NCBI GenBank assembly: GCA_964401485.1
Contig: CAYNYL010000001.1
Coordinates: 67,834-131,833, forward strand
Reading direction: 5' to 3'
DNA length: 64,000 nt
DNA from: an uncultured Gammaproteobacteria bacterium
Lineage (GTDB): Bacteria > Patescibacteriota > Patescibacteriia > UBA9934
The translations under genes and the position numbers were made by a program. The notes beneath the pieces were generated by a model. The model did no database searches. It was not told where the DNA came from and saw nothing but the letters and a program-made list of their open reading frames with translations. Within the stretch, counting starts at the first letter, position 1. Each line of letters starts with the position of its first letter. Of the stretch, positions 21,891 to 46,808 are shown one piece after another.

Positions 21891-22226
21891 TTACATTTTG
21901 ATTTCAACGTCGACTCCGGACGGAAGGTTCAAGGTCATAAGAGCATCCATTGTTCCTTCTGTTGGGTTAACGATATCGATCAAGCGCTTATGAATGCGCA
22001 TCTCGTACTGATCGCGTGACTTTTTATGGACGAACGTCGATCGGTTAACGGTGTAGCGTCGTTTCTCGGTTGGAAGCGGCACTGGACCAAGGATTGTCGC
22101 CCCTGTTCGTTGCGCCGTCTTCACAATCGTATCGGTTGCCGTGTCGATGATCTTGTGATCATAGGCGCGGATCTTGATACGAATCCGTTGTTTAACTTCC
22201 TCCGAAGTGTTTGTTTTAGCATTCAT
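21891..22226 (-). CDS. rpsJ: 30S ribosomal protein S10
   Basis: 111 aa with S10 signature. Confidence 0.9.
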
Positions 22227-22282
22227 AGAAAGAACGATTCAGCAAAAAGGAAAAGGCCGAAGCCCTTTCCTATTTGACATTA

Positions 22283-23461
22283 TTACTCAACAATTTTGGT
22301 TACAACTCCAGCTCCAACTGTTCGTCCACCTTCGCGGATCGCAAAGCGCATTTGCTCTTCGATAGCAACTGGTGAAATAAGTTGGATGGTCGTGTTAACG
22401 GTGTCTCCAGGCATAACCATTTCTGTTCCTGCTGGAAGTTCTACAAGCTCTCCGGTTACGTCCGTTGTTCGGATGTAGAATTGTGGCTTGTATCCCTTGA
22501 AGAATGGCTTGTGTCGTCCACCCTCTTCCTTCGTCAACGCGTAGATTTCCGCTTCAAATTTCGTGTGTGGTTTTACCGCACCGATCTTTGAAAGCACCAT
22601 TCCTCGCTCAACATCTTCCTTCTTGATACCTCGAAGAAGAAGTCCGGCATTGTCTCCAGCCTTTCCTTCGCTAAGTTGCTTGTTGAACATTTCGATTCCG
22701 GTAACAACGGTCTTAACCGTGTCTCGGAGTCCTACCATTTCTACTTCATCGTTCAAGTTAACCATTCCTCGCTCGATACGTCCCGTTACAACGGTTCCTC
22801 GTCCTTCGATTGAGAACACGTCTTCGATTGGCATCAAGAATGGCTTCGCTGTATCTCGAACAGGCTCTGGGATGTATTCATCGAGGGCCTTGATAAGCGA
22901 TTTGATCGAATCTTGCGCAGCAGCATCTCCCTCTACAGCCTTAAGAGCTGAACCACGGATGATTGGGGTTGTGTCGCCTGGGTACTCGTACTTCTTCAAA
23001 AGATCACGAACTTCTTCCTCAACGAGGTCGATAAGTTCTGGATCGTCAACCATATCAACCTTGTTCAAGAAAACAACGATGTATGGAACTCCAACTTGGC
23101 GAGCAAGAAGGATGTGCTCTCGTGTTTGTGGCATCGGACCGTCTGCTGCCGAAACAACAAGGATCGCTCCGTCCATTTGAGCCGCTCCCGTAATCATGTT
23201 CTTTACGTAGTCAGCGTGTCCTGGACAGTCAACGTGCGCGTAGTGACGAGCTTCAGACTCGTACTCAACGTGCGATGTCGAAATCGTAATACCTCGCTCT
23301 CGTTCTTCTGGAGCGTTGTCGATTTGGCTGTAGTCCTTCTTTTGGTTCGAAGGTGAGTAAAGAATAGAAAGCGCTGCAGTAAGCGTTGTCTTACCATGGT
23401 CGACGTGACCAATGGTTCCGACGTTTACGTGTGGCTTTGAGCGATCAAATAGTTCGGCCAT
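22283..23461 (-). CDS. tuf: elongation factor Tu
   Basis: [15 protein letters not shown] and NKVD GTPase motifs. 392 aa. Confidence 0.95.
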
Positions 23462-23531
23462 AGTGTGTTAATTTAAGTGCGAAAAGTATACCAAATGCCT
23501 TGAAAAAGCGCAAGTCTTTGCCGTAACGCGC

Positions 23532-23858
23532 CTACTCGATTGGCTCGAGATAGAACTGTTCCTCGCCAAAAGTGCCTGAAGTTGGCTCTTTTTCTTGGAT
23601 TTCTTCGAGGGTCGGAACCTCAAAATCCTCTTCATTTACGGGGCTTTTTTCAATTACCGGCTCCTCGGGCCTTGTAACCTCCTCAAGAGGCTCGTCGTGA
23701 CCATGGTCGTGGTCGTGCGCGTGGTCGATCAATTCCTCGAAAACCGCGAGGGGGAGAAGGACTTGTGGCTCGTCATCTTCCCGATCACTTGTCACGATCA
23801 CCGGAGCCCCCGTTTTTTGAGCGATTTGGATTAATCGCTCGAGTCTTGGATATGCCAT
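23532..23858 (-). CDS. small acidic protein; N-terminus resembles a Phd/YefM-type or AbrB-like fold, followed by a His/Asp/Glu-rich tail
   Basis: 108 aa between fusA and tuf. Its own promoter reads TTGACG, 16 nt, TAAGAT, directly downstream of the bidirectional fusA terminator at 23884-23910. The tail includes HAHDHDHGHDEPLEE. Confidence 0.5.
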   Translation of the reverse strand: MAYPRLERLIQIAQKTGAPVIVTSDREDDEPQVLLPLAVFEELIDHAHDHDHGHDEPLEEVTRPEEPVIEKSPVNEEDFEVPTLEEIQEKEPTSGTFGEEQFYLEPIE

Positions 23859-23927
23859 ATACCCCGCATCTTAACGGATATTGCCAGTCCGTCAATACGA
23901 AAAAACGCCCGTTTTGGGCGTTTTCTC

Positions 23928-26012
23928 TTAACCTTTTCGTTTTGCAATAATTTCGGTCGCAACGTTTGATGGAACTTCTTGGTATTCGTAGAACTCCATC
24001 GAGTAGCTCGCGCGTCCCTGCGTAATCGAGCGAAGGCTCGTCGCGTATCCGAACATTTCGGAAAGTGGCACGATCGCGAGAACCGTCTTTACGTTTCCTC
24101 GATCACCCATTTCTTGGATTTGCGCGCGCTTTGAGTTCAAGTCTCCAACAACGGTTCCCATGAAATCTTCAGGGGTCACCGCTTCAACCTTCATCATCGG
24201 CTCAAGAATAACCGGTTTCGCTTTCTTTACCGCTTCTTGTACCGCGAGCGAACCAGCCATCTTAAAGGCCGCTTCGTTCGAGTCAACGTCATGGTAGGAA
24301 CCGTCAAAAACGGTTACCTTTACGTTAATCATTGGGTATCCAGCGATAATTCCGCGCTCAAGCGCTTCCTTCGCTCCCTTTCCAACTGGAGCAATGTATT
24401 CGCGAGGAATCGCTCCTCCCTTTACTTCGTCAACGAATTCGAACGGAAGAGCTTCAGGTCCGGTCGCAGGCTCAACGCGCACCCAGGCATGACCATACTG
24501 TCCACGTCCTCCGGATTGCTTTACGTATTTTCCTTCTCCTTCTGCGGATTGTCGGATCGTTTCACGGTAGCTTACCTGCGGTCGACCAACGTTTGCCGTT
24601 ACGCCGTACTCGCGCTTCATTCGGTCAACAATGATTTCAAGGTGAAGTTCTCCCATTCCTGAGATAATCGTTTGAAGGGTATCTTCATCCGTTCGAACGC
24701 GGAACGTTGGATCTTCTTCCGCAAGCTTTTGAAGCGCCATCGAAAGCTTCTCTTGGTCAGCCTTCGTCGCCGGCTCAAGCGCAAGCGAGATAACCGGTTC
24801 TGGGAAGGTAATCGACTCAAGAACGATTGGGTGATCCGGGTCACACATCGTGTGTCCAGTAAACGTTCCCTTAAGTCCTACCGCTGCGGCGATTTCTCCC
24901 GCATACACCTCCTCTACGTCTTCACGCGAGTTAGCGTGGAGTCGAACAATTCGAGAAATTCGCTCTTTTTGACCAGTGCTTGAGTTCAAGACATATGAAC
25001 CAGCTTTAAGCGAACCCGAATAGACACGGAAGAACGCAAGCTTTCCAACAAACGGATCCGCCGCGATCTTAAACGCAAGAGCGGAAAACGGTTCGCTATC
25101 CGAAGTCTTTCGTTCAATCACTTTTTCTGGTTCATCAGGATCAAATCCTTCAACCGGAGGAACATCAAGTGGGGACGGAAGGTAGGCAACAACACCATCA
25201 AGCATCGCTTGTACTCCTTTGTTTTTAAGCGCCGATCCGCAGAGAACTGGGAAAATATTGAGAGAAAGGGTTGCTTTACGCAAAATGCGCTTAAGTTCAT
25301 CCATCGGGATCTCTTCCCCCGAAAGATACTTGTCCATCGCGACTTCGTCGTTTTCTACGATCGCTTCAACAAGACGCGCGCGCCATTCCTTTGCCGTTTC
25401 CGCGTAATCCGCAGGGATTTCGATCTCATCGATCTTCTTTCCTTCATCATCGCGGTACATGTGCGCCTTCATCGTAAACAAATCGATAATTCCTTCGAAT
25501 TTATCTTCTGTTCCGATTGGAAGTTGGATTGGGTGGGCATTTGGGGTAAGTCGCGTTCGGATTGATTGAACATCCTTATAAAAGTCCGCACCTGTTCGGT
25601 CGAGCTTGTTAATGAAACAAATTCGAGGAACTTTGTATTTATCCGCTTGTCGCCAAACGGTTTCAGATTGTGGCTCAACTCCCGCAACTCCATCAAATAC
25701 CGTTACACCTCCGTCAAGAACACGAAGCGAACGCTCAACTTCAACAGTGAAGTCTACGTGTCCAGGGGTGTCGATAATGTTAATTCGGTGATCCTTCCAG
25801 AAACAGGTGGTCGCGGCAGCCGTAATCGTAATTCCACGCTCCTGCTCTTGCTCCATCCAGTCCATCGTTGCCTCTCCTTCGTGTACTTCTCCAATTTTGT
25901 GCTTCTTTCCGGTATAGAAGAGCACGCGCTCGGTTGTCGTTGTCTTACCAGCGTCAATGTGCGCAATAATTCCGATGTTTCGGGTCTTGTCTAAGGAGTA
26001 GTCTCGAGGCAT
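23928..26012 (-). CDS. fusA: elongation factor G
   Basis: 694 aa with AHIDAGKTT and DTPGHVDF motifs. Confidence 0.95.
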
Positions 26013-26034
26013 ATGATAAACGTTTTGATAGAGA

Positions 26035-26505
26035 TTAGCGTCGTGCGAAGTGGGCGAAGGCGCGGTTTGCGTCGGCCATCTTTTGGACGTCTTGTCGCTT
26101 CTTTACCGCTGATCCTTCATTATTTGCTGCGTCCATGATTTCGGTCGCGAGTCGTTCCGCCATCGGCTTTCCTTTTCGGGCGCGTGCAGCTGCGAGCATC
26201 CACCTAAACGCGAGGGCCTGTCGGCGCTCTCCGCGTACTGGAACTGGAATCTGGTAGTTTGCTCCTCCAACACGCTTTGATTTTACTTCAACCGCTGGCA
26301 TCACGTTCTTCATCGCGGTGTCGAACACGTCAATCGACTTTTGCTTTGTTTTCTTTTCGATTACTTCAAAGGCATCGTAGACAATTCGTTCTGCAACGGT
26401 CTTTTTTCCGTCATGCATGACGTAGTTTACGAGTTTAGAAACAACAACGCTCCCGTATTTAAAATCGGGACGAGTAATTCTGACTGGGGCTTGCTTTCCA
26501 CGCAT
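26035..26505 (-). CDS. rpsG: 30S ribosomal protein S7
   Basis: 156 aa with S7 signature. Confidence 0.9.
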
Positions 26506-26572
26506 AGGTATATTGGTTCCGTTTGCTTTCGCAACTTCCCGTGTGGTTTGACGGTACTACGGATGGTTAAAT

Positions 26573-27001
26573 TTAGGATTTCTTAACTTTCGGACGCTTT
26601 GTACCGTACTTCGATCGTCCACGTCGGCGCGATTCGATACCGGTCGTATCATATCGTCCTCGAACGATGTGGTAACGCACACCCGGAAGATCTTTTACTT
26701 TTCCTCCACGGATCATTACGATCGAGTGCTCTTGGAGGTTGTGTCCTTCTCCTGGGATATAAGCGTTTACTTCTTGACCATTAGAAAGTCGAACACGAGC
26801 GACTTTTCGAAGAGCCGAGTTCGGTTTCTTTGGGGTCATTGTCATTACGCGCGTACAAACTCCTCGCTTGTAAGGCGCTCCACGGCTTAACGTCGTTTTC
26901 TTGCGGTGCAAGGTGTCGAGCGTGAACTGCATCGCAGGCGACTTTGATTTTCGCTTCGATGTTGTTCGGTTTTTTCGAATCAACTGGTTGATCGTAGGCA
27001 T
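26573..27001 (-). CDS. rpsL: 30S ribosomal protein S12, with an N-terminal insertion of about 14 aa
   Basis: [10 protein letters not shown]...KRGVCTRV...[10 protein letters not shown]. The start ATG is at 27001. The ORF track's 27016 start is a TTG 5 codons upstream. Confidence 0.9.
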
Positions 27002-27062
27002 AATAAATGTGGGCAAAGTGTAGCATGACCCCTAAAAACGGTCAATATTCGGGCCCCTCGCG

Positions 27063-27737
27063 TCAAAAAACGCTCGAGAGGACCTCAAAACAGGCGCCAT
27101 TTGTTAGGAGTTCACAGGCAATTCCCGACGGAATACTGACAAAAAAGAACGGGTTTATACGCGTTGTTATTGATAAAATCACAAGAAAAAGGAGGACAGT
27201 TGGGGCATACTGACGAATCGCCTCGCGCGTTCGTTGCTCATGTGGTTTATCAAGAACAAGGTCAAGAACCTTCGAGCCGTCAAGCGGATCAAGGGGAATT
27301 AAGTTAAATATCGCGAGCGAAAGGTTAATAATGACCATCGCGACAAGAAACAAGGTCAATCCCGAGCCGAGCCCGATAAGCCCCAAGGCCGTAAGAACCG
27401 CAAATATCCCCGAAGAAAGAAGCGCTAGAAAAAGATTTGAAGCGGGACCCGCGAGAGCGATATGGAAGGCGTCACGCTTTGGGTTTGCGAGGTTATACGG
27501 ATTGTAAGGAACCGGTTGTGCCCAACCGAATCCAACGAATAAAAACATGATAAACCCCATTGGTGAAATATGGGCAAGCGGATTAATCGTTAGCCGACCT
27601 GCGAGTTTTGCTGTTCTATCCCCTTTTAGCGTCCCAACGAGCGCATGGGCAAATTCGTGGAATGAGAGGGAGATCAAAATTGCAATGAGCCAAATTAGAG
27701 CCGTGATCGGGCTCAAAAAAAACAAATCAATCAGCAT
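27063..27737 (-). CDS. site-2-protease-family zinc metalloprotease (peptidase M50)
   Basis: A HEFAHA zinc motif sits inside a transmembrane helix. The protein is multi-pass. Confidence 0.7.
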   Translation of the reverse strand: MLIDLFFLSPITALIWLIAILISLSFHEFAHALVGTLKGDRTAKLAGRLTINPLAHISPMGFIMFLFVGFGWAQPVPYNPYNLANPKRDAFHIALAGPASNLFLALLSSGIFAVLTALGLIGLGSGLTLFLVAMVIINLSLAIFNLIPLDPLDGSKVLDLVLDKPHEQRTREAIRQYAPTVLLFLVILSITTRINPFFFVSIPSGIACELLTNGACFEVLSSVF

Positions 27738-29022
27738 AGGAAATATCCGCTCCAATCGAAATCAACTTATCAAAGAGTTTTTCGTACCCACGTTCGAGGT
27801 GGTGGATTCCGTCGATGCGCGATTCGCCTTCCGCGACAAGCGCCGCGGCAACGTAGGCGAGGCCCGCACGAATATCTGGAACCGTCATCGTTCCGGCAAC
27901 AAGTGGCGTTTTACCTGTAATAACGGCGGTTTGTTGGTAGTTTTGAAGCTTGAACTGACCGGAGATTTCTTCCGGAAGGTAGGCAATTTCAATCTTCGCA
28001 CCCATTGCGTTCAATGTTTCCGTATAGCGGAATCGGTCCTCATAAACGGTTTCGTGGATTTTCGATACCCCTTCGGCTTGAGTCAAAACCACCGCAAACG
28101 GCTGTTGCCAGTCGGTCGAAAATCCAGGGAACGTGTCCGTTTCGATCGTCGTCGCCTTGTAATTTCCATCTCCGAAGAATCGAATTCCGTCATCTTTCAC
28201 CTCATATCCTCCGCCAATCGAGCGAATCGCGTTTAAAAACGTAATCATGTCGCGCTGTACCGCCCCTTCGCAAAAAATATCGCCACCGGTTGCGAGCGCA
28301 AGACAAGCAAATGATCCCGCCTCGAGACGATCCGGCAAAACGCGATGCTCGCACCCGTGAAGCTCCTCGACACCCGTAATAATAACTGTTCGTCCTGCCC
28401 CAACCTCGATATTTGCCCCCATTTTTTGGAGCATCGCAATCAGCTCCATAATCTCCGGCTCGATCGCCGCGTTTTGAATTACGGTCCGACCCGAAGCTAA
28501 CACCCCGGCAAAAATAATCGATTCAGTCGCACCGACCGACGGATACGGAAGCTCAACCGATACTCCGCGAAGCCCTTCTTTTGCCGTAAAATGCCACCCC
28601 TCGTCGGTTACTTCGACCGTCGCCCCCATTCTTTGAAGCGCGCTTACGTGATAATTCACTGGGCGCGGACCAATCTTATCGCCCTCAACTTTCGGGATCG
28701 TCGCCTCGCCCGAGCGGTGCATCAAAGGCGCGGCAAGAAGAATCGAAAGCCGGTTCTTGCGAGTGAGCGCCATTGTTGAGGTCGAACGGATTTCCGGAGT
28801 CGCTGCCCTTAGCGTATGGTCCTCAATACTTGCCGTAGCCCCAATCATCTCGATCAATTCTTTCGCAATATCAGTTTCTTCTTGTAATGGAACGTTATGT
28901 AAAATCACCTGCTCCTTTGTAAGAAGGCTCGCAATAATCATTTTTGACGCCGCATTTTTCGCCCCCGCGATTTTTACCGTTCCCGTAAGCCGACTTCCAC
29001 CGCGGATTAAAAATTGTTTCAT
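27727..29022 (-). CDS. murA: UDP-N-acetylglucosamine 1-carboxyvinyltransferase
   Basis: 431 aa with an EPSP-synthase fold. MKQFLIRGGSRLTGTVKIAGAKNAA N-terminus. Confidence 0.9.
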   Translation of the reverse strand: MKQFLIRGGSRLTGTVKIAGAKNAASKMIIASLLTKEQVILHNVPLQEETDIAKELIEMIGATASIEDHTLRAATPEIRSTSTMALTRKNRLSILLAAPLMHRSGEATIPKVEGDKIGPRPVNYHVSALQRMGATVEVTDEGWHFTAKEGLRGVSVELPYPSVGATESIIFAGVLASGRTVIQNAAIEPEIMELIAMLQKMGANIEVGAGRTVIITGVEELHGCEHRVLPDRLEAGSFACLALATGGDIFCEGAVQRDMITFLNAIRSIGGGYEVKDDGIRFFGDGNYKATTIETDTFPGFSTDWQQPFAVVLTQAEGVSKIHETVYEDRFRYTETLNAMGAKIEIAYLPEEISGQFKLQNYQQTAVITGKTPLVAGTMTVPDIRAGLAYVAAALVAEGESRIDGIHHLERGYEKLFDKLISIGADISYAD

Positions 29023-29023
29023 A

Positions 29024-29554
29024 TTAGCGTAGGCGTTTCGCCCAAGTTAGTACTGATTCGACGAACTCTCTCGCGCGCTCAACCCATTGTGCATTCGGGG
29101 ACGCCGGATCAAAGTCTTCAACATACGGCGTAAGGAGCGACGGCGGAAGAACGATCCCTTTCGCACCAATCCACGCCTGGCGAAGTGCCACAACCATCCG
29201 TCCCCCACCCCACTGACCGCTTGACACACCAACGATCGCAAGCGGTTTATCTCGAAGTTCCTTACTATCCGCAAAATCAATTGCGTTTTTCACGGCTCCC
29301 GGAAGACTTTGGTGATATTCCGGCGAGACCATGACAATAACATCCGCCTGTTTATACGCATCTAAAAGTCGTTCCCTTCCCTCTCCTCCATTTTCTCCGT
29401 TATAGACCGGTAAATTCAGTTCCATTAAATCGACAAAATCGACGCTCGCTCCCGCCTCCTCAAACAGTCGCTTGAGTACACCAGCCGGCTTCTCGGATTG
29501 TCTTCCAACTCGCACAGATCCCAAAATAAGCGCAATCCGTAAGGATTCATTCAT
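29024..29554 (-). CDS. NAD(P)H-dependent FMN reductase-like flavoprotein
   Basis: LILGSVRVGRQS...VMVSPEYHQSLPGAVKNAIDF matches the FMN_red family. Confidence 0.65.
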   Translation of the reverse strand: MNESLRIALILGSVRVGRQSEKPAGVLKRLFEEAGASVDFVDLMELNLPVYNGENGGEGRERLLDAYKQADVIVMVSPEYHQSLPGAVKNAIDFADSKELRDKPLAIVGVSSGQWGGGRMVVALRQAWIGAKGIVLPPSLLTPYVEDFDPASPNAQWVERAREFVESVLTWAKRLR

Positions 29555-29600
29555 ACACGCACAGCGTACCAAAATCGACCCCGAGCGACAAGAAACGAGA

Positions 29601-29640
29601 AGGCCCCGGGTGAACGTATTTCACCGCGGGGCCCACGAGG
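29601..29640 (-). terminator. GC-rich hairpin terminator of the 473-aa orphan gene
   Basis: A GGCCCCGGGTGAA..TTCACCGCGGGGCC stem, followed on the minus strand by a T-rich tract. Confidence 0.45.
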
Positions 29641-29651
29641 TTCACGGACGC

Positions 29652-31073
29652 TTAGCTCGAAACCGGCGCGCGCCTGACTCGACGCCTGCGATCAACGGGA
29701 GACGAGGACTCGTCCTCTTCTTGAATGAGCTTGTCCCACTCCTCAAGCGTATCCTTCGGAAGTACCGCCCTGAGAAACCCAAGAACCCGAGCACGCTCAC
29801 GGATTCCATGGTTATCGTCAAGTTTCGACCACTCGGTAGAAAGGTGATTCCATACCGTAATGGTGATCACTTCGCAGCGATTGATCACGGTACGCCCCCT
29901 AACGACATGCTCAATCGTTCCAAGCACCTTCGCGTCGCTGTACTCATCACTACGCAACTTGTGACCGGCGTTATGCTCGTTCGACTCGATCTTCGTGAGT
30001 CGGAACGGCAGTTGAGAAAACAGCCGCTCCGCGATCATCTGATTGAAGTTCGCTCGGTCGGCGTGCGTCGGGAGACGGAATGCGCCAACCTCCTCGATCG
30101 CAACGAGGACAAACTTCCCACCAACACCATCCTTCATCAGACTATCCCGCAGGTCCTCCGAAGTGAGAATCCCCTCTTCGTCGATCTTGCGTTCAGTCTT
30201 CATGATGCTCGAGAGCAGTTCTTTCGCTCTCGGATCGCAAAACACCCAGTATCGAACACCGTTAATGAGCATCGTCGCTCGGCAACGGAACTCCTTCACT
30301 CGGACGCGCTTCCTACGACGACCGCGCTGGGCCGCCCACTCACGCGCAAGGCTGTTATCCTCAAACAACCTCACGTTCTGTGGAACAAGCCCCTCCTTGT
30401 CACCCTTTCGAATGCCGGCGATGCGCCCGGTTACGGGATTGCACTCCGCCGCAATCGAAAACCTCCGTTCGAGTCCCGGTTCCAGAATGCGCTCGTCCCA
30501 ACCACTCTGCAAAACATCAACCGCAAGCGCGCGAAGCGAGAAAGGGTCGGCGTGATCAGCAAAGAACCGCGCGATCGTAAAGGCGAGTTTGAACCGCGCG
30601 TGAAGCGGAACAAGCCTCGACCACTCGCCGTCACCCGGAGGTGAGGCGATTTGTTGCATCAGCCTCACCGGGTCCACGTTGGACTTCACCTGGTTGTTGA
30701 AGTCGAGAGCGGGAAGGATAGACCGCAAATCACCCTCAAGCGCAATCATCCTCAAATCAGACTTGTGTCTGACCGTAATCTGACCAAGACGCGCCACCAG
30801 CCATTCCGCACCGGTCGCTCGTAGCGGAGCCGCCGCACGATCACCCGGGGGCAATCGTGACCGCAGAAAAGCGACGCGAACCTCGACGCCCGTCTTGATT
30901 CGCTCAAACATCGCGTAGGCAAGACGCGGATCCGCAATCTCCACCACGATATCAAAGAGTGCGAGTTCATCACCTCCATTCTCGAGAAACTCAGGTCCAA
31001 GCTCCTCAAGGATGACCTCGATCCACCGAACCTTGTACGGCGGGAACTGCTCCACCGGATCGATGATACGCAT
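29652..31073 (-). CDS. large orphan protein of 473 aa in a GC-rich insert; function unknown
   Basis: Long uninterrupted ORF. Local GC is about 57%, against about 48% for its neighbours. It lacks a P-loop, a YxDD motif and a tyrosine-recombinase signature. The C-terminal tail is Arg-rich. Confidence 0.55.
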   Translation of the reverse strand: MRIIDPVEQFPPYKVRWIEVILEELGPEFLENGGDELALFDIVVEIADPRLAYAMFERIKTGVEVRVAFLRSRLPPGDRAAAPLRATGAEWLVARLGQITVRHKSDLRMIALEGDLRSILPALDFNNQVKSNVDPVRLMQQIASPPGDGEWSRLVPLHARFKLAFTIARFFADHADPFSLRALAVDVLQSGWDERILEPGLERRFSIAAECNPVTGRIAGIRKGDKEGLVPQNVRLFEDNSLAREWAAQRGRRRKRVRVKEFRCRATMLINGVRYWVFCDPRAKELLSSIMKTERKIDEEGILTSEDLRDSLMKDGVGGKFVLVAIEEVGAFRLPTHADRANFNQMIAERLFSQLPFRLTKIESNEHNAGHKLRSDEYSDAKVLGTIEHVVRGRTVINRCEVITITVWNHLSTEWSKLDDNHGIRERARVLGFLRAVLPKDTLEEWDKLIQEEDESSSPVDRRRRVRRAPVSS

Positions 31074-31412
31074 GACCCCTCCAGGGCGCTAAAGGTTGAT
31101 CTCAAGAACTGTATCGCCCCGCGTAGTACGGGACGACTCTAAACCGTAGCAAAAATGAAAAAAACCCGCAATGCAGGTTCTCTTCTGGTGCCCCAAACGA
31201 AAGGTGTAAGTTGGTCCGTTTCCCATTTGGGTAGTGGCGATAGGCCTCGAAGACGGTAGCGCGCTAAGCGCCTCACGTCTCGAGCAAAACCGCCTGGACC
31301 GCTGTATCTCCCCTAGATCGAGGAAATCTTTCACGAAGTAGTTGGCCAATTACAGTGACTTTCGCCTGAAGCACCTTTATCATTACACCAATCGGACCGT
31401 TTGGCAACGGGC

Positions 31413-31880
31413 TTAGACGCCTTCGCCAAAATGATACTTATCTGTCAATTTTTCGTAGGTAAAGAGCTCTTCCGGTTTAAAGAAGCGGTTGATTTCAACT
31501 TCCGCTGCTTCTGGGGAGTCCGAGGAATGGACCATGTTTGCAGGAACATTCATCGAAAGATCCGCACGAATCGTTCCAGCGTCCGCCTTTCGCGGATTTG
31601 TCGCTCCAACAATCTTTCGTACAACCTCGATTGACTCGAGTCCTTCAAGGATCATTGCAACGACCGGGGTCTGTTGCATAAACGTCTTCAAGTCATTGAA
31701 GAATGGCTTCTCCTTAAGGTGACCGTAGTGCTCAATAAGCGTCGCATCGTCAAGATGTGTCATCTTCATCGCAACGATTTTTAAGCCAGTTTGTTCGAGA
31801 CGAACAATGACTTCGCCGACGCGTTCCCGCTGAAACGCATCCGGCTTAATAAGGACCAAAGTTTTTTGAATATCTGCCAT
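31413..31880 (-). CDS. ndk: nucleoside diphosphate kinase
   Basis: LVLIKPDAFQR and the NxxHxSD active-site region (NMVHSSD). Confidence 0.9.
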   Translation of the reverse strand: MADIQKTLVLIKPDAFQRERVGEVIVRLEQTGLKIVAMKMTHLDDATLIEHYGHLKEKPFFNDLKTFMQQTPVVAMILEGLESIEVVRKIVGATNPRKADAGTIRADLSMNVPANMVHSSDSPEAAEVEINRFFKPEELFTYEKLTDKYHFGEGV

Positions 31881-31922
31881 AGATTTAGTTAGCGAGAACG
31901 CTACAATAATAGCATAGGTTTG

Positions 31923-32786
31923 TCAATTTTGTCGCCCGAGAGAAAATGTTGCAACGCGAATCGTCCCGTCGGGATATATCTGAATCCGTATATCACCGTT
32001 CTCATCCGTACGAAAGAGCTGTACACCGTGACGCTCGAGGCGAGTAAGGGTTTCGCTCGCGGGATGACCATAGTCATTCCCCTCCCCAAGACTCATTATC
32101 GCAAGCTCAGGATCGGCGAGCGTAAGAAGGGTTTCCGAAGTTGAGGTACGACTTCCGTGGTGTCCAACTTTTAACACGTCAACGTCGCGAAGACGTCCCG
32201 CGATCTCAAGCTCCTCTTCACTAGGAAGATCGCCGGTAAAAAGAAGTGACGTTCCATAGACGGAAAGAATTCCGGTTATTGAGGCGCTATTTGCATCCTC
32301 TGGATTCAACGCCTCCCCGCGCGGGGGCCAAAGGACCTCAAACGTCGAGCCATTGTTAAATGTGATGATATCTCCGGTGAAGAGATACTGTTCGTCCATT
32401 TCGTTTACGAGCGTCTTATAGACGCGACTCTCGTAGGGGTAGTCCGGGAGAAAAACGTGATCAAAGGTGAAATAGTGTAAGGCATGGACAATGCCGTCAA
32501 TATGGTCAGCGTGTGGATGTGTTCCTATGACATACTCAATCCTTCGATCCCAAAACGACATCGTCTCCGTCAATTTTTCGACAACCGAAGATCCTGGACC
32601 GCCGTCAATCAATAATTGCTCGCGACCCATATCGATAAGGGCCGAATCCCCTTGTCCAATGTCATAGAACCAAATTGTCACGATCCCCGACTCCGGCGCT
32701 CCGGAAAATACGCGATCACGAAAAAGCGCGAAGAGCACTGCTAGCGCGAGGAGGAGAAGGAACGCGAAGAGTTTCGTCCGAGCCAT
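31923..32786 (-). CDS. comEC: ComEC C-terminal metallo-beta-lactamase domain protein (split ComEC, part 2)
   Basis: YDIGQGDSALI...HPHADHIDG MBL motifs. It overlaps the upstream ComEC ORF by about 45 nt in a different frame. Confidence 0.7.
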   Translation of the reverse strand: MARTKLFAFLLLLALAVLFALFRDRVFSGAPESGIVTIWFYDIGQGDSALIDMGREQLLIDGGPGSSVVEKLTETMSFWDRRIEYVIGTHPHADHIDGIVHALHYFTFDHVFLPDYPYESRVYKTLVNEMDEQYLFTGDIITFNNGSTFEVLWPPRGEALNPEDANSASITGILSVYGTSLLFTGDLPSEEELEIAGRLRDVDVLKVGHHGSRTSTSETLLTLADPELAIMSLGEGNDYGHPASETLTRLERHGVQLFRTDENGDIRIQIYPDGTIRVATFSLGRQN

Positions 32787-34162
32787 AAGAGAAGAATCAC
32801 AATGAACCAAAGAAGAATCGCAAGCGGAGTCGAGAAAGAGAGCGGGACGGTCGCAAACGGAAGGTCGGCCGTTGTGCTAATGATAAAGAGAATCACCCGA
32901 AGAAGGAAATCAGTCATAGCGGAAAGCGGAAGAGAAAGGATCGGAACGAAGGACAGTGGGACTGAAAGCGCCCCGAGCGCCATCGTCATCGGGACAAGTG
33001 GAAGGACAAGGGCGTTCACAAAAAGCGCGATAATGGAAAAGGTTCCAAATTGGAGGGCGATAATCGGAAAGGTCGCGACCGTTGCGGAGATCGTCGAGGC
33101 CACGGATTCGCGAATGCCAAACGCCTCCGGAAGAAAGTCGAGTCGCTCCCCTACCGGTTTTGTTAGATATAGGAGTCCCGCCGTTGAAAGAAATGACAGC
33201 TGGAAGGCAACATCATCTCGAAGAAGATACGGGTTCATTAAGAGCATCGCGCAGGCGGTGAGAAGAAGGCCTTGCTCAGCTCCACTACGTCGACCAAAAA
33301 TCCGTGCCACAACGACAAGCGTCGCCATAAGTCCCGCGCGCAACACCGGTGGATCTCCACCGGCGAGCCAAACGTACACAAAAATCGCGCCAATAAGAAC
33401 GACCCCAGCGGATTTACGCCGAAGCGAAAGCGCAAGCAAGAATCCGAAAATAACAGTGGCAAACATTGTAACGTTGTAGCCGGAGGCGGCAACGATGTGA
33501 GAGGTGCCGGTTTTTTGGAAGGCCGATGACCATGCGTCGCTGAATTCTTTTTCGCCCAAAAGAAGCCCGTTAAGCAAGGTGCCTTGGGGCACGCCGTAGA
33601 TATGATCAACGCGATCGGTAAACGCTTCGCGGAGTTTTGTTGCAAGGCCCGCCCCGTCCTCAACGGTGAGACGCCTTGGTCGCATACAAAGCGCGTAGAC
33701 ATCCTTGGTCGCGAGGTACCAATCATAACGAAACCCGTCAAACGGTTCGGGCGCTTCGAGCGAACAAGTAAAGGAGACTTTGTCACCCGGAAGAATCTCA
33801 TTCCACGGATCGGTAAACAGAAGGATGCGATTCTCGACAGAAATATCATTCACTTGCACCTGGCGCCCAATCACTTCGAGTCGCTCACGTCCTTCAACGC
33901 GCGCCACCCGCGCCTCGACCTGCACCTCCTGACCCACGCTCGCGCGCACGGAATGTTCGGATGGACCCGACTCAAGATACAAAAAAACGCCCCCGGTAAA
34001 GGCGATGACCGCCGGCAAAAAGACAAGTGTGGTTTGCTTCGGAAAAGCGCCAAGGGCGATTATAAGGAGAACCCCAACCCAAATCGGAATACCAAAGCTT
34101 GCGACCGCGATTCCAAATAACCATCCAAGACAGAGCGAGCGGAGGAATCCCGCCGGTGTCAT
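32741..34162 (-). CDS. comEC: ComEC N-terminal part: DUF4131 plus the competence channel domain (split ComEC, part 1)
   Basis: 473 aa, polytopic, with ComEC competence-domain sequence. Confidence 0.7.
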   Translation of the reverse strand: MTPAGFLRSLCLGWLFGIAVASFGIPIWVGVLLIIALGAFPKQTTLVFLPAVIAFTGGVFLYLESGPSEHSVRASVGQEVQVEARVARVEGRERLEVIGRQVQVNDISVENRILLFTDPWNEILPGDKVSFTCSLEAPEPFDGFRYDWYLATKDVYALCMRPRRLTVEDGAGLATKLREAFTDRVDHIYGVPQGTLLNGLLLGEKEFSDAWSSAFQKTGTSHIVAASGYNVTMFATVIFGFLLALSLRRKSAGVVLIGAIFVYVWLAGGDPPVLRAGLMATLVVVARIFGRRSGAEQGLLLTACAMLLMNPYLLRDDVAFQLSFLSTAGLLYLTKPVGERLDFLPEAFGIRESVASTISATVATFPIIALQFGTFSIIALFVNALVLPLVPMTMALGALSVPLSFVPILSLPLSAMTDFLLRVILFIISTTADLPFATVPLSFSTPLAILLWFIVILLLWLGRNSSRSFSSSR

Positions 34163-35427
34163 AGGCCAATTCCAACAACGGTAAACCCTTTTTTGCGGAG
34201 CGCAAAATGTGGAAGCGCGTGTTTTCCGTCTCCGATAATCGGCTTACGAAGTGCCTTCTTCACCACATCAAAATCTGCCTCGATAAATTCCGGGAACTCC
34301 GTAAGCACAAGGAGTGCATCAGCGCCGACGAGCGCGTCGTCCTTCGAGGTCACGAGCTCAATCGCACCCTTGAAGTGTGCCTTTGCGTTATCGCGAGCGA
34401 GCGGATCGTAAGCACAAATCTTCACTCCACGAAGGAGGAGTGCCTCGACAATCCGTACCGCTGGCGATTCGCGAAGGTCGTCCGTACCCTTGTTAAACGC
34501 GAGCCCCCAAACGGCAAGCTTCGTCTCGGGAGTTAAGACCAGGAAGCGATCGAGATTTGCAAGAAATGCTTTGTGCTGGGCATCGTTCACTTCGATAATT
34601 GGGGCAATCAGTTTTGACGCATAGCCATGGTCACGCCCGGCACGATCAAGCGCAAGAACATCTTTTGGAAAACAGGATCCGCCAAATCCCGCGCCCGTCC
34701 CCAAAAATCGATTCCCGATTCGGGAGTCGGCGCCAACAATCGCTTCAATATCTTTAATATGTCCACCGGTAACTTGCGCGATATTTGCAACCTCGTTCAT
34801 AAACGAGAGACGAAGGGCAAGCATCGTATTTGACGCGTACTTTGCGATTTGTGCGGAAGCGATATTGGTAACAAAAATCGGAGCCTGGACGAACGTGTAG
34901 ATTTCTCGAAGGATCTGCTCGTCGCGGTGTGTCGACACGCCAAAGACAAGTCGCTCCGGTTTTTCGAAGTCCTCGAGCGCTCTCCCCTGTCGCAAAAATT
35001 CCGGATTGACCGCAAGCGACAAATCCTCTCGACCGAGCGCAATACGAAACTCACGCTCACTCCCCGGAGGCGTAGTGCTCTTAACAACGACAAGCGTCCC
35101 CGCCCTCGCAACCATCGCGACTTCTCGCAGTGCACTATTCACAAATCGCAAATCGCACTCGCCGTTCTCCCCTTGTGGAGTCCCAACACAAACGAATACA
35201 ACACCCGCCTCCCCGAGCTCTTCGTAACTCGTCGTAAACAGAAGTCGCTCTCCCGCCTCTTTCATCGCCTCGCGAACACCCGGCTCTTCAAACGGCACCT
35301 CCCCCTTTCTCAACCGCGCAACCTTCGCCTCGTCAACATCAACGCAAACAACCGTGTGCCCCGCCTTCGCAAGCGCCACAGCTTGGATTAGTCCAACATA
35401 TCCCGCCCCAACAACCGCAATTTGCAT
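34159..35427 (-). CDS. ugd: UDP-glucose/GDP-mannose 6-dehydrogenase family protein
   Basis: MQIAVVGAGYVGL Rossmann N-terminus and a catalytic GGSCFPKD motif. The start is at 35427, with a GGGGGAG RBS. Confidence 0.85.
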   Translation of the reverse strand: MQIAVVGAGYVGLIQAVALAKAGHTVVCVDVDEAKVARLRKGEVPFEEPGVREAMKEAGERLLFTTSYEELGEAGVVFVCVGTPQGENGECDLRFVNSALREVAMVARAGTLVVVKSTTPPGSEREFRIALGREDLSLAVNPEFLRQGRALEDFEKPERLVFGVSTHRDEQILREIYTFVQAPIFVTNIASAQIAKYASNTMLALRLSFMNEVANIAQVTGGHIKDIEAIVGADSRIGNRFLGTGAGFGGSCFPKDVLALDRAGRDHGYASKLIAPIIEVNDAQHKAFLANLDRFLVLTPETKLAVWGLAFNKGTDDLRESPAVRIVEALLLRGVKICAYDPLARDNAKAHFKGAIELVTSKDDALVGADALLVLTEFPEFIEADFDVVKKALRKPIIGDGKHALPHFALRKKGFTVVGIGL

Positions 35428-35467
35428 AATCTCCCCCGTTTTACCCCGTGCTATACTATTTGTAAAT

Positions 35468-37231
35468 ATGAAAAAGAAGGAGGCAACGGGGCTCGATGTT
35501 TTACAAGTATACTTCGGCCAAGCACGAAAACATTTCTTTAAACTGCTTACCGTTTTTGTATTCATTACCATTGGTAACATCGCAAGTATCGCGATTCCAT
35601 GGGTCATGAAAGATCTCTTCAATTTGCTCGAACAAACAACACCGACAAGCGCAACATTCGCTATTTTTACCCCCGTACTCACCCTTTTCGTATCTGTTAA
35701 ACTGTTGGAATGGTTTTTTTGGCGCGTTCACGATTTTATTTACATTCCTTATCTGCCGAAATCCATGGCGGATCTTGAACTCTCCGCGTACAAAAAACTC
35801 CTCGCACAAAGCGAGTCCTATTTTCAAAATGAGTTTGCCGGGTCTCTTACTCGCCAAATCCGTCGACTATCGGATGGCTTTGATCAATTTAGTAGCCATG
35901 TCATTTTTGAAATCTACCCAACGACCGCAATCCTTGTCGGATCCATCATCGGACTAAGTATTCAACGTCCAATTCTTGGACTCGCCTTCGGCATTTGGGT
36001 TACGGTGTTTATCGGCATACAGTTTTTTCTTACACGAATCGCATCGCGTTACGACGTGAGACGCGACGAACTTGATTCGAGCCTAAGCGGAGAAATCGCT
36101 GACTCGGTTTCAAACGCAATAACAATCAAAAGTTTTGCAACCGAAGACTTAGAGTTTCAAAAGCTTACGGTGGCGGAACAAAAATTAGCAAAAGCGACCT
36201 CGTTAAGCTGGACGGCTCACATGCTTATTTTCACCATTCAAACATTACTCATTATTACAATTGAGGTTAGTCTTTATTATTTTGGGGTAAAACTTTGGCT
36301 CGCTGAACAAATCACTCTTGGCGATATTGCCTTTATTCAAACGTTCCTTGCGCTCGTTTTCTTTAAGATTTGGGATGTTGCGCGTATCTTTAGAAAGATC
36401 GCTTCAACGATCACCGGAAGTAAGGAAATAGTAACAATGATGAATCAGAAAATTGAGATTACGGATATTTCTAGCGCTCAACCGCTAAAAGTGAGGGCGG
36501 GGAAAATTGTTTTTAGCAAAGTTTCATTTGCCTTTCAAAAAAATCAACCGGTCATTAAAAATTTGTCGCTCACGATTGATGCAAAACAGAAAGTTGCCCT
36601 TATTGGACCTTCAGGTGCGGGAAAGTCGACCATGGTCAAACTCTTGATGCGATTCTTTGATCTCCAAAAAGGAACAATCACAATAGACGGACAAAATACG
36701 GCGAAAGTCACTCAAGCCTCGCTTCGCTCCGCAATCTCTATCGTCCCTCAAGATCCAATTCTTTTTCATCGCTCCCTACTCGATAACATCCGCTATGGAA
36801 AACAGGATGCGACGATGGACGAGGTGATCGACGCTGCGAAGAAGGCACACTGCCATGAATTTATTTCTGCACTCAAGGACGGTTACGAAACATTTGTCGG
36901 CGAGCGTGGTGTTAAACTTTCCGGTGGCGAGCGCCAACGCGTCGCGATCGCTCGTGCGATTCTTCGCAACGCGCCCATTCTTGTTCTCGACGAAGCAACT
37001 TCGGCGCTCGATTCGGAGTCCGAACACCTGATTCAAGATGCCCTCCGAGAACTTATGAAAAACAAAACCGTAATCGTAATCGCCCATCGCCTCTCGACGA
37101 TTATGATGATGGATAAAATTGTCGTAATCGAAAACGGTAAAATCACCGACACCGGCACCCACGCCGAACTCCTCAAAAACCGCGGGACCTACAACAAACT
37201 TTGGGAACTCCAAGCCGGTGCGTTTAACTAA
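35468..37231 (+). CDS. ABC transporter, fused permease and ATPase (MsbA-like exporter)
   Basis: Six transmembrane segments followed by Walker A GPSGAGKST, an LSGGERQR signature and Walker B ILVLDEAT. The ATG lies 11 nt after a TGcTATACT extended -10, so the mRNA is probably leaderless. Confidence 0.85.
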   Translation: MKKKEATGLDVLQVYFGQARKHFFKLLTVFVFITIGNIASIAIPWVMKDLFNLLEQTTPTSATFAIFTPVLTLFVSVKLLEWFFWRVHDFIYIPYLPKSMADLELSAYKKLLAQSESYFQNEFAGSLTRQIRRLSDGFDQFSSHVIFEIYPTTAILVGSIIGLSIQRPILGLAFGIWVTVFIGIQFFLTRIASRYDVRRDELDSSLSGEIADSVSNAITIKSFATEDLEFQKLTVAEQKLAKATSLSWTAHMLIFTIQTLLIITIEVSLYYFGVKLWLAEQITLGDIAFIQTFLALVFFKIWDVARIFRKIASTITGSKEIVTMMNQKIEITDISSAQPLKVRAGKIVFSKVSFAFQKNQPVIKNLSLTIDAKQKVALIGPSGAGKSTMVKLLMRFFDLQKGTITIDGQNTAKVTQASLRSAISIVPQDPILFHRSLLDNIRYGKQDATMDEVIDAAKKAHCHEFISALKDGYETFVGERGVKLSGGERQRVAIARAILRNAPILVLDEATSALDSESEHLIQDALRELMKNKTVIVIAHRLSTIMMMDKIVVIENGKITDTGTHAELLKNRGTYNKLWELQAGAFN

Positions 37232-43935: not shown

Positions 43936-44859
43936 TTACTCTTTATGTGATAAATATCTCTCCGCTTCGAGCGCCGCTTGGCATCCACTTCCGGCCGCCG
44001 TGATCGCTTGGCGGTAGTGTGGGTCGATTACGTCACCGCACGCAAACACGCCCTCGATATTCGTCTTTGTCGAATCTGGGACATGTTTAATATAGCCCTT
44101 CACGTCGAGTTCGATCGCGTCCTTAAACAAATCCGTATTTGGTTTATGACCAATCGCCGCAAAATACCCCGTCGCTACAATCTCGCTCGCCTCCCCCGTT
44201 TTATTATTCACGGTCAATACTTTTTCAAGAGCGCTTTCTCCAACAAGTTCCGTTGGGCTCGTGTTAAAGACAATCGTAATTTTTTCATTCTTCATTGCAC
44301 GCTCTTGCATCGCCTTTGACGCACGAAGCGCTTCACCACGAACAAGCACCGTTACCTTGCTCGCAAACCGCGTTAAAAAGGTCGCCTCTTCCATCGCTGA
44401 GTCTCCTCCTCCGACAACAACAACCTCCTGATTCTTAAAGAAAAATCCGTCGCAGGTTGCGCAGGCCGAAACCCCCTTCCCCATAAGTCGCTCCTCGCCC
44501 GGAATCCCAAGCCACATCGCCGAAGCGCCCGTTGCAATAATCAAGGTCTCCGCAAAATACTCTCCACTTCCCGCCGTAACTTTGAACGGTCGGACGGAAA
44601 AATCGACCGCCGTTACCATCTCGTCTTTAACAGTCGTCCCAAACTTCTCCGCCTGACGCCGAAGATTCGCCATGAGCTCCGGGCCCATAATTCCACCATC
44701 CTCGCCCGGCCAGTTCTCGACTTCACTCGTAAGCATTAATTGCCCACCAGACTGGAGTCCCGCAAACAAAATTGGCGATAATTGCGCCCGACTCGCGTAA
44801 ATCCCCGCCGTATACCCCGCCGGCCCCGATCCAATAATAAGTGTTTTTTGTACAGCCAT
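43936..44859 (-). CDS. trxB: thioredoxin-disulfide reductase
   Basis: GSGPAGYTAGIYA, the redox CATCDG motif and a second GGGDSA nucleotide-binding site. Confidence 0.9.
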   Translation of the reverse strand: MAVQKTLIIGSGPAGYTAGIYASRAQLSPILFAGLQSGGQLMLTSEVENWPGEDGGIMGPELMANLRRQAEKFGTTVKDEMVTAVDFSVRPFKVTAGSGEYFAETLIIATGASAMWLGIPGEERLMGKGVSACATCDGFFFKNQEVVVVGGGDSAMEEATFLTRFASKVTVLVRGEALRASKAMQERAMKNEKITIVFNTSPTELVGESALEKVLTVNNKTGEASEIVATGYFAAIGHKPNTDLFKDAIELDVKGYIKHVPDSTKTNIEGVFACGDVIDPHYRQAITAAGSGCQAALEAERYLSHKE

Positions 44860-44979
44860 AAAATCCTTTAGATTTGTAGCTTATCACGACTTCCCGATTG
44901 ACAAAAGTGCCATTTTATGGTATGTTTCTTGGTTCTCGCGAAAGCGAAAACGCCTTTACAACCGCCCCTGGAGGCAGAG

Positions 44980-45606
44980 ATGAACCGCAACCACATCCGC
45001 TATAACTACTACCGCTTCTGGTACTGGTATGGCGGACTCCCCTGGATCCTTCGTCAGATCGTCGCGACAGCCGTCTTCTACGGGCTGACGTACCTGCTGG
45101 TCGGTCACTCGACCGTCCGGTGCTTCGTCGATGGCGAGGAAGTCGTCGGTCAGTGCCGAGTCCTGAACTTCAAGGGTGAGGAGATCGGAACCGCACCGCT
45201 GACGCGTCGACTCGAGTTCGGCTGGGGAACCGTTACCGTCTACCCACCCAAGGACGCCGTCGTCAACACGGAATACATCGGGTGGGGCTGGATCTCGACC
45301 GGCATCGGGAACGACATCGGCGCCTTCCTCGGAGTGACCCCACCATTCGATGCGCGATTCGAGACGCTCGAGGCGCAGACGCACATCACCTGCACCGTCA
45401 ACGGCGACCCCCAGAACTGCGAGGTGGAGCTCAACGGCAGTCACCTCGGAGTAACGCCAGTCGAGCAGGCGCTCGGCGTCGGCGAGTTCCGGGTCACCGT
45501 CTACCCGCCCGACTGGGCGGAGACGACAATCGCCCATCAGGAATGGACACTCGCAAGCCCGAACGGCGAAGGCCAGAACCTCGTCGCCGAGTTCGAGGGT
45601 TTCTAA
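44980..45606 (+). CDS. membrane-anchored protein with two PEGA-like repeats, in a GC-rich insert
   Basis: GGAGG RBS. One N-terminal transmembrane helix. Internal repeat ...G.TP.......G...VTVYPP(K/D)... occurs twice. GC is about 62%. Confidence 0.55.
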   Translation: MNRNHIRYNYYRFWYWYGGLPWILRQIVATAVFYGLTYLLVGHSTVRCFVDGEEVVGQCRVLNFKGEEIGTAPLTRRLEFGWGTVTVYPPKDAVVNTEYIGWGWISTGIGNDIGAFLGVTPPFDARFETLEAQTHITCTVNGDPQNCEVELNGSHLGVTPVEQALGVGEFRVTVYPPDWAETTIAHQEWTLASPNGEGQNLVAEFEGF

Positions 45607-45616
45607 CTTCTCGACA

Positions 45617-45672
45617 CCAACGGCCCCGCTGCCGGCAAGACACCTCGTGTCTCTCGCTGGCGCGGGGTGTTT
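45617..45672 (+). terminator. GC-rich intrinsic terminator after the PEGA gene
   Basis: CCCCGC...long imperfect stem...GCGGGG followed by TGTTTTGTT. Confidence 0.45.
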
Positions 45673-45704
45673 TGTTATGCTACGGTTTCTTTCGAGGAGG
45701 GTTC

Positions 45705-46067: not shown

Positions 46068-46166
46068 CCGGGGGTTTTCGTTTTTCATGAAAATAAAAGA
46101 CGCCGGCCGTGAATCAGCCGACGTACACACGAACGCCCCGGGCTCAGATGAACCTGGGGCGAGAAA

Positions 46167-46781: not shown

Positions 46782-46808
46782 GTGTTCGGAATGCGTCGAC
46801 TCCGTAAC

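Follow-up and report, generated by a model that had tools for sequence, protein, structure and literature searches.

How did a lone gene of raised guanine-plus-cytosine (GC) content come to lie among the conserved genes of an uncultured bacterium, and what does it encode? The question was raised by a minus-strand open reading frame (ORF) of 473 amino acids (aa) that is located between ndk and a flavin mononucleotide (FMN) reductase gene in contig CAYNYL010000001.1 (assembly GCA_964401485.1). The window, i.e. the whole stretch of DNA that was analyzed, comprises 64,000 nucleotides (nt) of this contig. The initial annotation had described the ORF as an orphan on a horizontally acquired single-gene module that might encode a plasmid or phage replication-initiator-like protein or an abortive-infection (Abi) or defence gene. 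Many genes in the genomes of the ultra-small Patescibacteria (the Candidate Phyla Radiation, CPR) lack annotation, and stress signalling and defence are poorly understood in these organisms. The analysis presented here found the ORF to be a gene resident in a Patescibacteria clade of family level, not a fresh foreign insertion. The explanation that we favor, with a probability of roughly 60%, is that the slot holds a hypervariable gene for a divergent RelA/SpoT-like pyrophosphokinase, that its alleles are swapped by recombination, and that its role is possibly conflict-related.

The chromosomal slot and its alleles

The ORF is part of a co-directional run that reads leuS, ugd, comEC, MBL, ndk, the ORF, FMN reductase, murA, M50 protease, rpsL, rpsG, fusA, tuf, rpsJ, rplC and onward, and the contig recurs identically in three sister samples. 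In relatives, the order is ndk, a non-coding stretch of 340-830 nt, a member of the ORF's family, and then the FMN reductase gene and/or murA. This slot was filled by a family member in all eight related genomes recovered (L009/L011, L008, L012, L013, L014, L092, and L093; ndk is not on the short contig of L093), and no empty site was seen among them. Their MurA proteins are 98% (L009/L011), 74% (L008), 69% (L012), 66-67% (L013/L014), and 65% (L092) identical to that of the window. Syntenic homologs, most of them with an excess of GC at third codon positions (GC3), were thus found in every related genome recovered; the initial annotation had itself named such homologs as refuting its proposal. 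Neither an integrase nor a transposase was detected within 10 kb on either side of the ORF, and neither direct nor inverted repeats were found at the borders of the block described below. The nearest tRNA genes are >24 kb from the ORF, with no tRNA target at the locus. The metagenome-assembled genomes (MAGs) L011-L013 were deposited as "uncultured Gammaproteobacteria bacterium" despite their Patescibacteria gene order and nearest relatives, which is probably a labelling artefact.

The gene, its control elements, and the block that distinguishes it from the allele of L009 are located as follows (dN and dS denote non-synonymous and synonymous divergence, and z denotes the folding z-score).

29652..31073, minus strand: 473-aa protein-coding gene, one allele of a hypervariable locus (ORF call, ATG start, dN/dS, homologs)
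29618..31070: replaced block, with no nucleotide homology to L009 and with flanks of 85-96% identity (blastn, alignments, identity profile)
29601..29634, minus strand: allele-specific terminator hairpin with a 14-bp G+C-rich stem (-31.3 kcal/mol, z -3.8)
29585-29600, minus strand: U-rich tract after the hairpin, shared between alleles
31074..31149, minus strand: 5' leader of the ORF and likely promoter region, with a hairpin and GGAGGGG, common to different alleles
within 31074..31149, upstream of the ATG, minus strand: GGAGGGG ribosome-binding site

The ORF and its GC-rich 3' hairpin terminator had both been called by the initial annotation, and both were confirmed. The 5' leader is ~90% identical to that of L009 up to the ATG and forms hairpins in its minimum-free-energy (MFE) structures; the flank in locus L104, from another sample, is alike.

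The proteins encoded around the ORF are close to those of L009 (Ndk, 98%; MurA, 98%; FMN reductase, 90%; S12, 100%; S7, 99%; EF-G, 99%), whereas the ORF products are 32% identical and have different lengths (473 vs. 535 aa). According to blastn, homology to L009 breaks off at 31071 (the start codon) and at 29617 (35 nt past the stop codon, at the 3' base of the hairpin), and identity in the flanks is 85-89.5%. Each allele carries its own hairpin; that of L009 occupies the same place and has equal strength (z -3.8), with another sequence. For the ORF, dS between the window and L009 is saturated (1.98) and dN is 0.82; the dS values of ndk and the FMN reductase gene are 0.24 and 0.26.

A second allele of the window's type (P0002) was found in L104. 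Its product is 92% identical to that of the window ORF, and the comparison of the two yielded a dS of 0.42, a dN of 0.036, and a dN/dS of 0.086, even across both halves of the gene. This ratio indicates that the minus-strand frame is a functional gene under purifying selection. A 390-aa plus-strand ORF (29472-30644) that overlaps it was dismissed as a by-product of high GC, as the substitutions fit the minus-strand frame. Because L104 is about as distant in dS and yet has the window's type of allele, divergence in place cannot explain the allele of L009.

Nine alleles were compared, i.e. those of the eight genomes and that of L104. Amino-acid identities were 23-42%, with the exceptions of L013/L014 (63%) and window/L104 (92%), and were decoupled from the identities of MurA and Ndk; the allele of L009, for instance, is nearer to that of L008 (42%) than to that of the window. 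The presence of the same allele in L104, the replaced allele in L009, and the purifying selection together indicate that the alleles are old, functional, and exchanged by recombination. In our reading, what lineages swap is the entire allele, beginning at the start codon and including its own terminator hairpin, and the conserved flanks serve for the homologous recombination; within each of the deep allele classes, the gene is under ordinary purifying selection. Of the acquisition proposed initially, lateral exchange inside conserved flanks has stood; recent insertion has not, given that the slot is filled in all relatives.

An identity profile of window positions 22000-37070 against L009 was mosaic. 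Nucleotide identity was 97-100% at 37070-34971, 61-77% at 34670-31971 (the 3' end of ugd, comEC, and MBL), 92-96% over ndk and the small RNA (sRNA) gene described below, nil over the ORF, 85-95% over the FMN reductase gene and murA, and 71-75% at 27742-27143 (M50 protease); outside these blocks and the one mentioned next it was 85-98%. This profile points to frequent recombination with diverged relatives. A further divergent block (23545-23844; 73% identity vs. 93-95% around it) corresponds to a 108-aa ORF between fusA and tuf that has no Pfam match in the Logan gene calls. The DNA-uptake gene comEC lies inside the mosaic, 1.7 kb from the locus. A diversity-generating retroelement was also considered as a source of the variation. 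No template/variable repeat pair was found, no segment of the ORF is repeated elsewhere in the window, and the differences between the window and L104 are gene-wide and mostly synonymous; this candidate was rejected.

For the GC content, the initial annotation had reported a jump to about 57% against about 48% in the flanks. The ORF has a GC content of 0.569, and the window mean is 0.507 (sd 0.030, 1422-nt windows); the 3-kb flanks, however, are at 0.503 and 0.515 rather than 0.48. Only 4.6% of the 1422-nt windows reach the ORF's value. They are confined to three places (~650-3700, the ORF, and ~44250-47800), so the rise is real but not unique to the ORF. The two other patches (up to 0.61) equal or exceed it and contain small ORFs that are mostly without Pfam matches (one PEGA-domain and one DUF218 protein were found), along with overlapping ORFs on both strands. 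Third codon positions hold most of the ORF's excess (GC3 of 0.646 vs. 0.46-0.565 in ten neighbouring genes). Ten loci were compared with respect to GC3, and in eight of them, among which are all seven slot loci (the window aside), the family gene lies above its neighbours irrespective of host GC (e.g. 0.70 vs. 0.38, 0.66 vs. 0.34, 0.50 vs. 0.25, and 0.81 vs. 0.64). The proteins of the family contain 8-12% Arg, and the Arg-rich C-terminal tail (..DRRRRVRRAPVSS) noted initially was evident in the translation of the ORF. As excess GC3 and Arg richness recur across the family, they are regarded as family traits and not as signs of recent arrival.

The protein family, its predicted fold, and its candidate active site

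The 473-aa protein had no match in Pfam, PADLOC, PHROGs, or NCBIfam. It matched only itself in a word-indexed search of 5.8 billion proteins, and hardly anything besides the query was retrieved when the family profile was used in such a search. To this extent the designation "orphan" is apt; an exhaustive phmmer search of 1.84 billion cluster representatives, however, produced 19 matches, of which 16 are real distant relatives that align over most of the length. The matches P0007 and P0020 were discarded as repeat-inflated false positives. One relative, the 302-aa P0004, is an incomplete call of a ~430-aa gene (L008, GCA_964399715.1); it is short because a run of N (a scaffold gap) interrupts the family gene of L008 at ~6300-6480.

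For locus searches, a subgroup alignment was used, as divergence across the whole family made the complete alignment unsuitable. The resulting profile found 5 metagenome loci and, in IMG/VR, no viral loci. Searches of phage records (50,697) and plasmid records (72,556) by tblastn detected no relative, and comparison of the predicted model with viral predicted structures (BFVD) gave no significant match. The family is small and, as far as sampled, restricted to Patescibacteria. Distant members were found in other surroundings. That of L004/L005 (8001-9287) lies near polA, a MazE/PIN pair, an integrase gene, and a HepT/MNT pair (in L004, the last three follow it), and that of L107 (5992-7260) follows a HEAT-repeat gene and polA; the polA neighbourhood, in another Patescibacteria lineage, is thus a second recurrent context for the family. 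The members in L105 and L108 follow a thioredoxin-like gene, and that in L091 precedes a trehalose-phosphate synthase gene.

AlphaFold2 (AF2) was used for structure prediction. Prediction from the single sequence was useless (predicted local distance difference test, pLDDT, of 35); the 17-sequence family alignment was employed, and it yielded a model with a mean pLDDT of 81 and a predicted template modelling (pTM) score of 0.82, in which ~195 residues of helices precede an alpha/beta domain. Foldseek was used to compare this model with the PDB. No structural match was found for the N-terminal domain. Ranks 1-39 were all small alarmone synthetases (SAS; RelP/SAS2, RelQ/SAS1, and other "GTP pyrophosphokinase" chains), and nothing else was significant. 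The best match had an E-value of 2.5e-4 and a probability of 1.0 over ~180 aligned columns, and the template modelling (TM) scores normalised to the target were 0.43-0.50. The predicted domains and the motifs that resemble those of RelA/SpoT homologues (RSH) are as follows.

30486..31073, minus strand: N-terminal all-helical domain, residues ~1-196 (AF2); acidic (pI 5.5) and poorly conserved
29706..30485, minus strand: C-terminal alpha/beta domain, residues ~197-456, predicted RelA/SpoT-homologue synthetase fold (Foldseek, AF2)
30198..30230, minus strand: R282-x-K284-x3-S288-x3-K292, helix 286-296, with the spacing of the RSH ATP-phosphate-binding RxKxxxSxxxK
30114..30131, minus strand: D315-x-x-G318-x-K320, start of strand 317-328, putative counterpart of the Mg-binding DxxGxR; D315 invariant
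29808..29942, minus strand: Y378-x-D380-x-K382-x-x-G385, E401, and H422, invariant, putative counterparts of the RSH PKxNG loop, of the Glu of ExQxRT, and of the following His

Nine residues (C264, K284, K292, D315, D339, D380, G385, E401, and H422) are invariant across the 17-sequence alignment. In the first motif, which includes two of them, the Arg is present in 15 of the 17 sequences and the Ser position is occupied by S, A, or P; position 320 is K or R. The model places K382-x-x-G385 at the start of strand 381-391, E401 in strand 394-406, and H422 at the start of the next helix. The C-terminal domain and the tail are basic.

For sequence comparison, a reference alignment of nine RSH sequences was assembled; it comprised E. 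coli RelA together with RelA-, RelP-, and RelQ-like genes of a phage collection. When the family was compared with this reference in hhalign, GRxKxxxSIxxK and DxxGxR aligned in exact register (P 0.03-0.05). A low-stringency, low-confidence maximum-accuracy (MAC) alignment placed E401 on the Glu of EIQIRT; the next residue in the family is often Q, and the R-T of this motif shows no conservation. The specificity of the two-part motif was examined by scanning the stop-free segments of 150 aa or more from all loci of the analysis (1,410 segments, 436,172 residues) with the pattern R.K...[SAP]...K.{10,45}D..G.[KR]. It occurred in 12 of the 1,410 segments, of which seven were family members and the other five were true SAS. 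When PDB sequences were searched with a profile, the sole match was a spurious designed repeat protein.

Judged from the model and these motifs, the protein would be a divergent enzyme of the RSH-synthetase fold with an intact ATP/Mg site and an altered acceptor site. The most likely chemistry would be an ATP-dependent pyrophosphate transfer to the 3'-OH group of an acceptor. In RSH and toxic SAS (toxSAS) enzymes, the Tyr of the G-loop is critical for binding of the substrate (acceptor) (PMC9712102). In the present family, this Tyr is not conserved; an invariant Tyr, Y378, sits 7 residues upstream of G385. Because the predicted acceptor pocket is unlike that of (p)ppGpp synthetases, the acceptor may be a nucleotide or the 3' end of an RNA or tRNA. 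Toxic SAS are known to pyrophosphorylate the CCA end of tRNA and to synthesize (pp)pApp (bioRxiv 10.1101/2021.04.30.441581; PMC11782079; PMC9712102).

The adjoining structured RNA

The initial annotation had noted about 340 bp of non-coding DNA upstream of the ORF. The region (31074-31412; 339 nt) is indeed free of long ORFs; it nevertheless holds a conserved gene for a structured sRNA, with these parts:

31150..31375, minus strand: structured sRNA gene of ~225 nt (conservation, folding, own promoter and terminator)
31379..31407, minus strand: sigma-70-like promoter of the sRNA, TTGCCA-17-TG-AATGAT (promoter scan; invariant T and A columns in alignments)
31185-31157, minus strand: intrinsic terminator of the sRNA, 13-bp stem and T-run

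The region is 95% identical to that of L009, and its central 245 nt are ~99% identical, which is above the flanking coding sequence. On the minus strand, the sRNA folds with a z-score of -4.5, compared with 0 for the plus strand. A homologous RNA adjoins the family gene in all eight clade genomes. Its conserved blocks are AAUUGGCC, UGAAAGG, CAGCGGU, and ACCCAnAUG..GGACCA, and compensatory changes were observed in the 12-bp closing helix, an inner helix (called invariant), and the terminator. In L093, the sRNA gene is inverted relative to the ORF and still adjacent to it, which argues that it is an independent gene and not a leader. The sRNA is near-identical beside alleles that are 32% identical, so it does not co-evolve with them. 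A functional link between the sRNA and the protein is possible but unsupported.

No Rfam 15 family matched this sRNA: a scan of the window at gathering thresholds reported 4 tRNAs only, and permissive scans of three versions of the sRNA reported nothing credible. Several identities were considered and rejected. The readings as a retron RNA, an OMEGA (IscB-type) guide RNA, a riboswitch, or a type III antitoxin were set aside on account of the ORF's lack of a match to a reverse transcriptase (RT) or to RuvC/HNH, the lack of co-variation with the alleles, the sRNA's own promoter and terminator, its inversion in L093, and the absence of tandem repeats and of an Rfam match. RNase P RNA, SRP RNA, 6S RNA, tmRNA, and the FMN and cobalamin riboswitches are unsupported by Rfam. 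When viral contigs were scanned with a pattern for the sRNA, one local similarity emerged: in an IMG/VR contig of 1432 nt (L119), a 31-nt sequence, UUACCCACAUGAGGUAGAGGACCAAG, closely resembles the most conserved block of the sRNA (region 1050-1147). The motif CUGAAAGGAGG lies ~40 nt upstream of it, and Rfam gave only a weak, sub-threshold match to SAM-III there.

Proposed role, alternatives, and known systems

Several features would fit a role in biological conflict: the deep alleles and their swapping, the variable acidic N-terminal domain, and the basic, conserved catalytic half. Enzymes of the toxSAS type are known toxins and anti-phage effectors (PMC9712102; bioRxiv 10.1101/2021.04.30.441581). 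By the logic of the fused toxSAS, the variable N-terminal domain could act as a regulator or sensor and the C-terminal domain as a toxic effector. The protein seems to be self-contained, because there is no recurring partner, no antitoxin-like gene or domain, and no PADLOC match. By this analogy, a self-contained sensor with a toxic effector is plausible, not established. The initial guess of an Abi or defence gene is to that extent a live possibility, given that the RSH fold includes toxins and anti-phage effectors and that a distant member lies near MazE/PIN, HepT/MNT, and integrase genes; the guess of a replication-initiator-like protein has fallen, in view of the synthetase fold of the model and the absence of relatives from the phage, plasmid, and viral collections searched.

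A number of results weigh against the favored explanation. The RelA_SpoT profile of Pfam matched neither the ORF nor any of the 17 family members, a home-made RSH hidden Markov model (HMM) scored ~0 on the family, and the hhalign P-value is weak. The residue after G385 is T, R, H, S, W, or F, i.e. the G-loop Tyr is not conserved. No antitoxin is evident beside the ORF, where the neighbours are the sRNA, ndk, the FMN reductase gene, and murA, nor does the protein contain a known antitoxin domain or match PADLOC. Across the loci of the distant members, no partner gene recurs. The gene occurs in every genome examined and among housekeeping genes, unlike the presence/absence pattern of defence islands. 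The excess GC3 was also counted on this side; GC-biased gene conversion where recombination is frequent (a hot spot), a common pool of GC-richer alleles, or selection could account for it.

Universal presence in a housekeeping slot beside ndk equally allows a housekeeping alarmone synthetase. Such an enzyme would make (p)ppGpp or a related signal for growth control, the proximity of ndk would reflect nucleotide metabolism, and the diversity would be that of a tolerant, fast-drifting protein in a recombining population. The gene is always present, in single copy, co-directional with core genes and adjoining ndk; it is under purifying selection with invariant catalytic motifs, no canonical RSH is encoded within the 64-kb window, and other nearby blocks are mosaic as well. 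This account is nonetheless unlikely. An ORF identity of 32% beside neighbours at 98-100%, together with the incongruence between alleles and species, goes far beyond the other mosaic blocks (61-77% at the nucleotide level), the G-loop Tyr that stacks on a guanine acceptor is not conserved, and the N-terminal domain is variable. It is less probable still that the likeness to RSH reflects only a general nucleotidyltransferase-like alpha/beta fold and that the protein does something else, such as binding RNA in connection with the sRNA. HMMER similarity is absent, the hhalign P-value is only 0.03-0.05, the TM-score is <0.5 with a large root-mean-square deviation (rmsd), the sRNA and the ORF stay adjacent even where the sRNA is inverted, and the C-terminal domain and tail are basic, all of which would agree with such a function. 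Against this stand the top 39 structural matches, which belong to one family and not to assorted nucleotidyltransferases, the two-part ATP/Mg motif with its exact spacing, which within the tested background only SAS and this family contain, and the matching order of the secondary-structure elements that bear the motifs; the sRNA, moreover, does not co-vary with the alleles and is absent near the distant members.

A single-gene phage or plasmid island that was recently acquired between the FMN reductase gene and ndk, with for example an Abi gene or a replication initiator as its cargo, is very improbable. Its appeal lies in GC and GC3 values above those of the flanks, the lack of annotation in any library, the lateral exchange of gene content, and the distant relative near an integrase and toxin-antitoxin genes. 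It is contradicted by the homologs in the same slot of all eight relatives with no empty site seen, by the recurrence of the GC3 excess in nearly all of them, by the lack of an integrase, transposase, tRNA target, or border repeat, by the lack of relatives in phage, plasmid, and viral collections or among viral structures, and by a predicted fold that is a synthetase's and not a replication initiator's.

We therefore return to the favored explanation of a fixed-slot, hypervariable, RelA/SpoT-like gene. It can be extended to a bolder and doubtful one, in which a Pfam-invisible branch of RelA/SpoT proteins in Patescibacteria serves as a one-protein immune or conflict module in a core slot. Many ancient allele classes would persist through balancing selection, and transformation and recombination would exchange them as cassettes that run exactly from start codon to terminator. 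The N-terminal domain would sense an invader or partner, and the C-terminal domain would pyrophosphorylate an unusual acceptor that may be linked to the sRNA, for instance with the latter in the role of a substrate, a decoy, or a regulator. Were the conflict reading correct, the locus would be a core-genome, single-protein immune gene of a new architecture.

The analysis provides a probable fold and a predicted ATP-dependent pyrophosphotransfer chemistry for a family that every sequence library had missed. It would extend the RelA/SpoT superfamily to a lineage and an architecture that are not catalogued in the libraries and literature searched. The whole-gene allele replacement is unusually clean and lies in a core, ribosomal-protein-rich neighbourhood, which makes it useful for the study of recombination and balancing selection in uncultured episymbionts. 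The locus also cautions against reading a local anomaly in GC as proof of recent insertion. In addition, an sRNA that is conserved and structured, has a promoter and a terminator of its own, and matches no Rfam family was brought to light.

Among known systems, RelQ and RelP (SAS1/SAS2; PDB 5DED, 6EX0, and 6EWZ) were the best and only significant structural matches of the ORF model. The likeness extends to the RxKxxxSxxxK helix and the DxxGx(R/K) strand and, tentatively, to a Glu at the putative catalytic position and the His after it, in the same order and with similar spacing. The family differs from them in the absence of HMMER and Pfam similarity, an extra ~195-aa N-terminal helical domain, the unconserved G-loop Tyr, extreme allelic diversity, and its confinement, as far as sampled, to Patescibacteria.

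The toxic SAS (FaRel2, PhRel, and the fused CapRel-SJ46) also combine, in the case of CapRel in one polypeptide, an RSH-type catalytic domain with a variable domain (PMC9712102). Rapid diversification, the occurrence of one distant family member among toxin-antitoxin genes, and the basic catalytic half are further points of likeness. The order of the domains is reversed, however: the variable domain of the ORF is N-terminal, and the antitoxin domain of CapRel is C-terminal. The ORF also differs in having no known antitoxin domain, PADLOC match, or bicistronic partner and in its fixed location among housekeeping genes, as opposed to a prophage or island. In CapRel, the G-loop Tyr is the site of a catalytically dead mutation; the ORF lacks this residue.

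At the level of the locus, the appropriate comparison is with comC/comD, agr, and hsdS, pherotype or specificity loci that are polymorphic by allele replacement between conserved flanks. Unlike these, the gene described here encodes a putative enzyme with neither a paired partner nor a known link to recognition. It shares with them the sharp breaks at gene borders, the old alleles, the conflict between allele and genome trees, and the exchange by homologous recombination.

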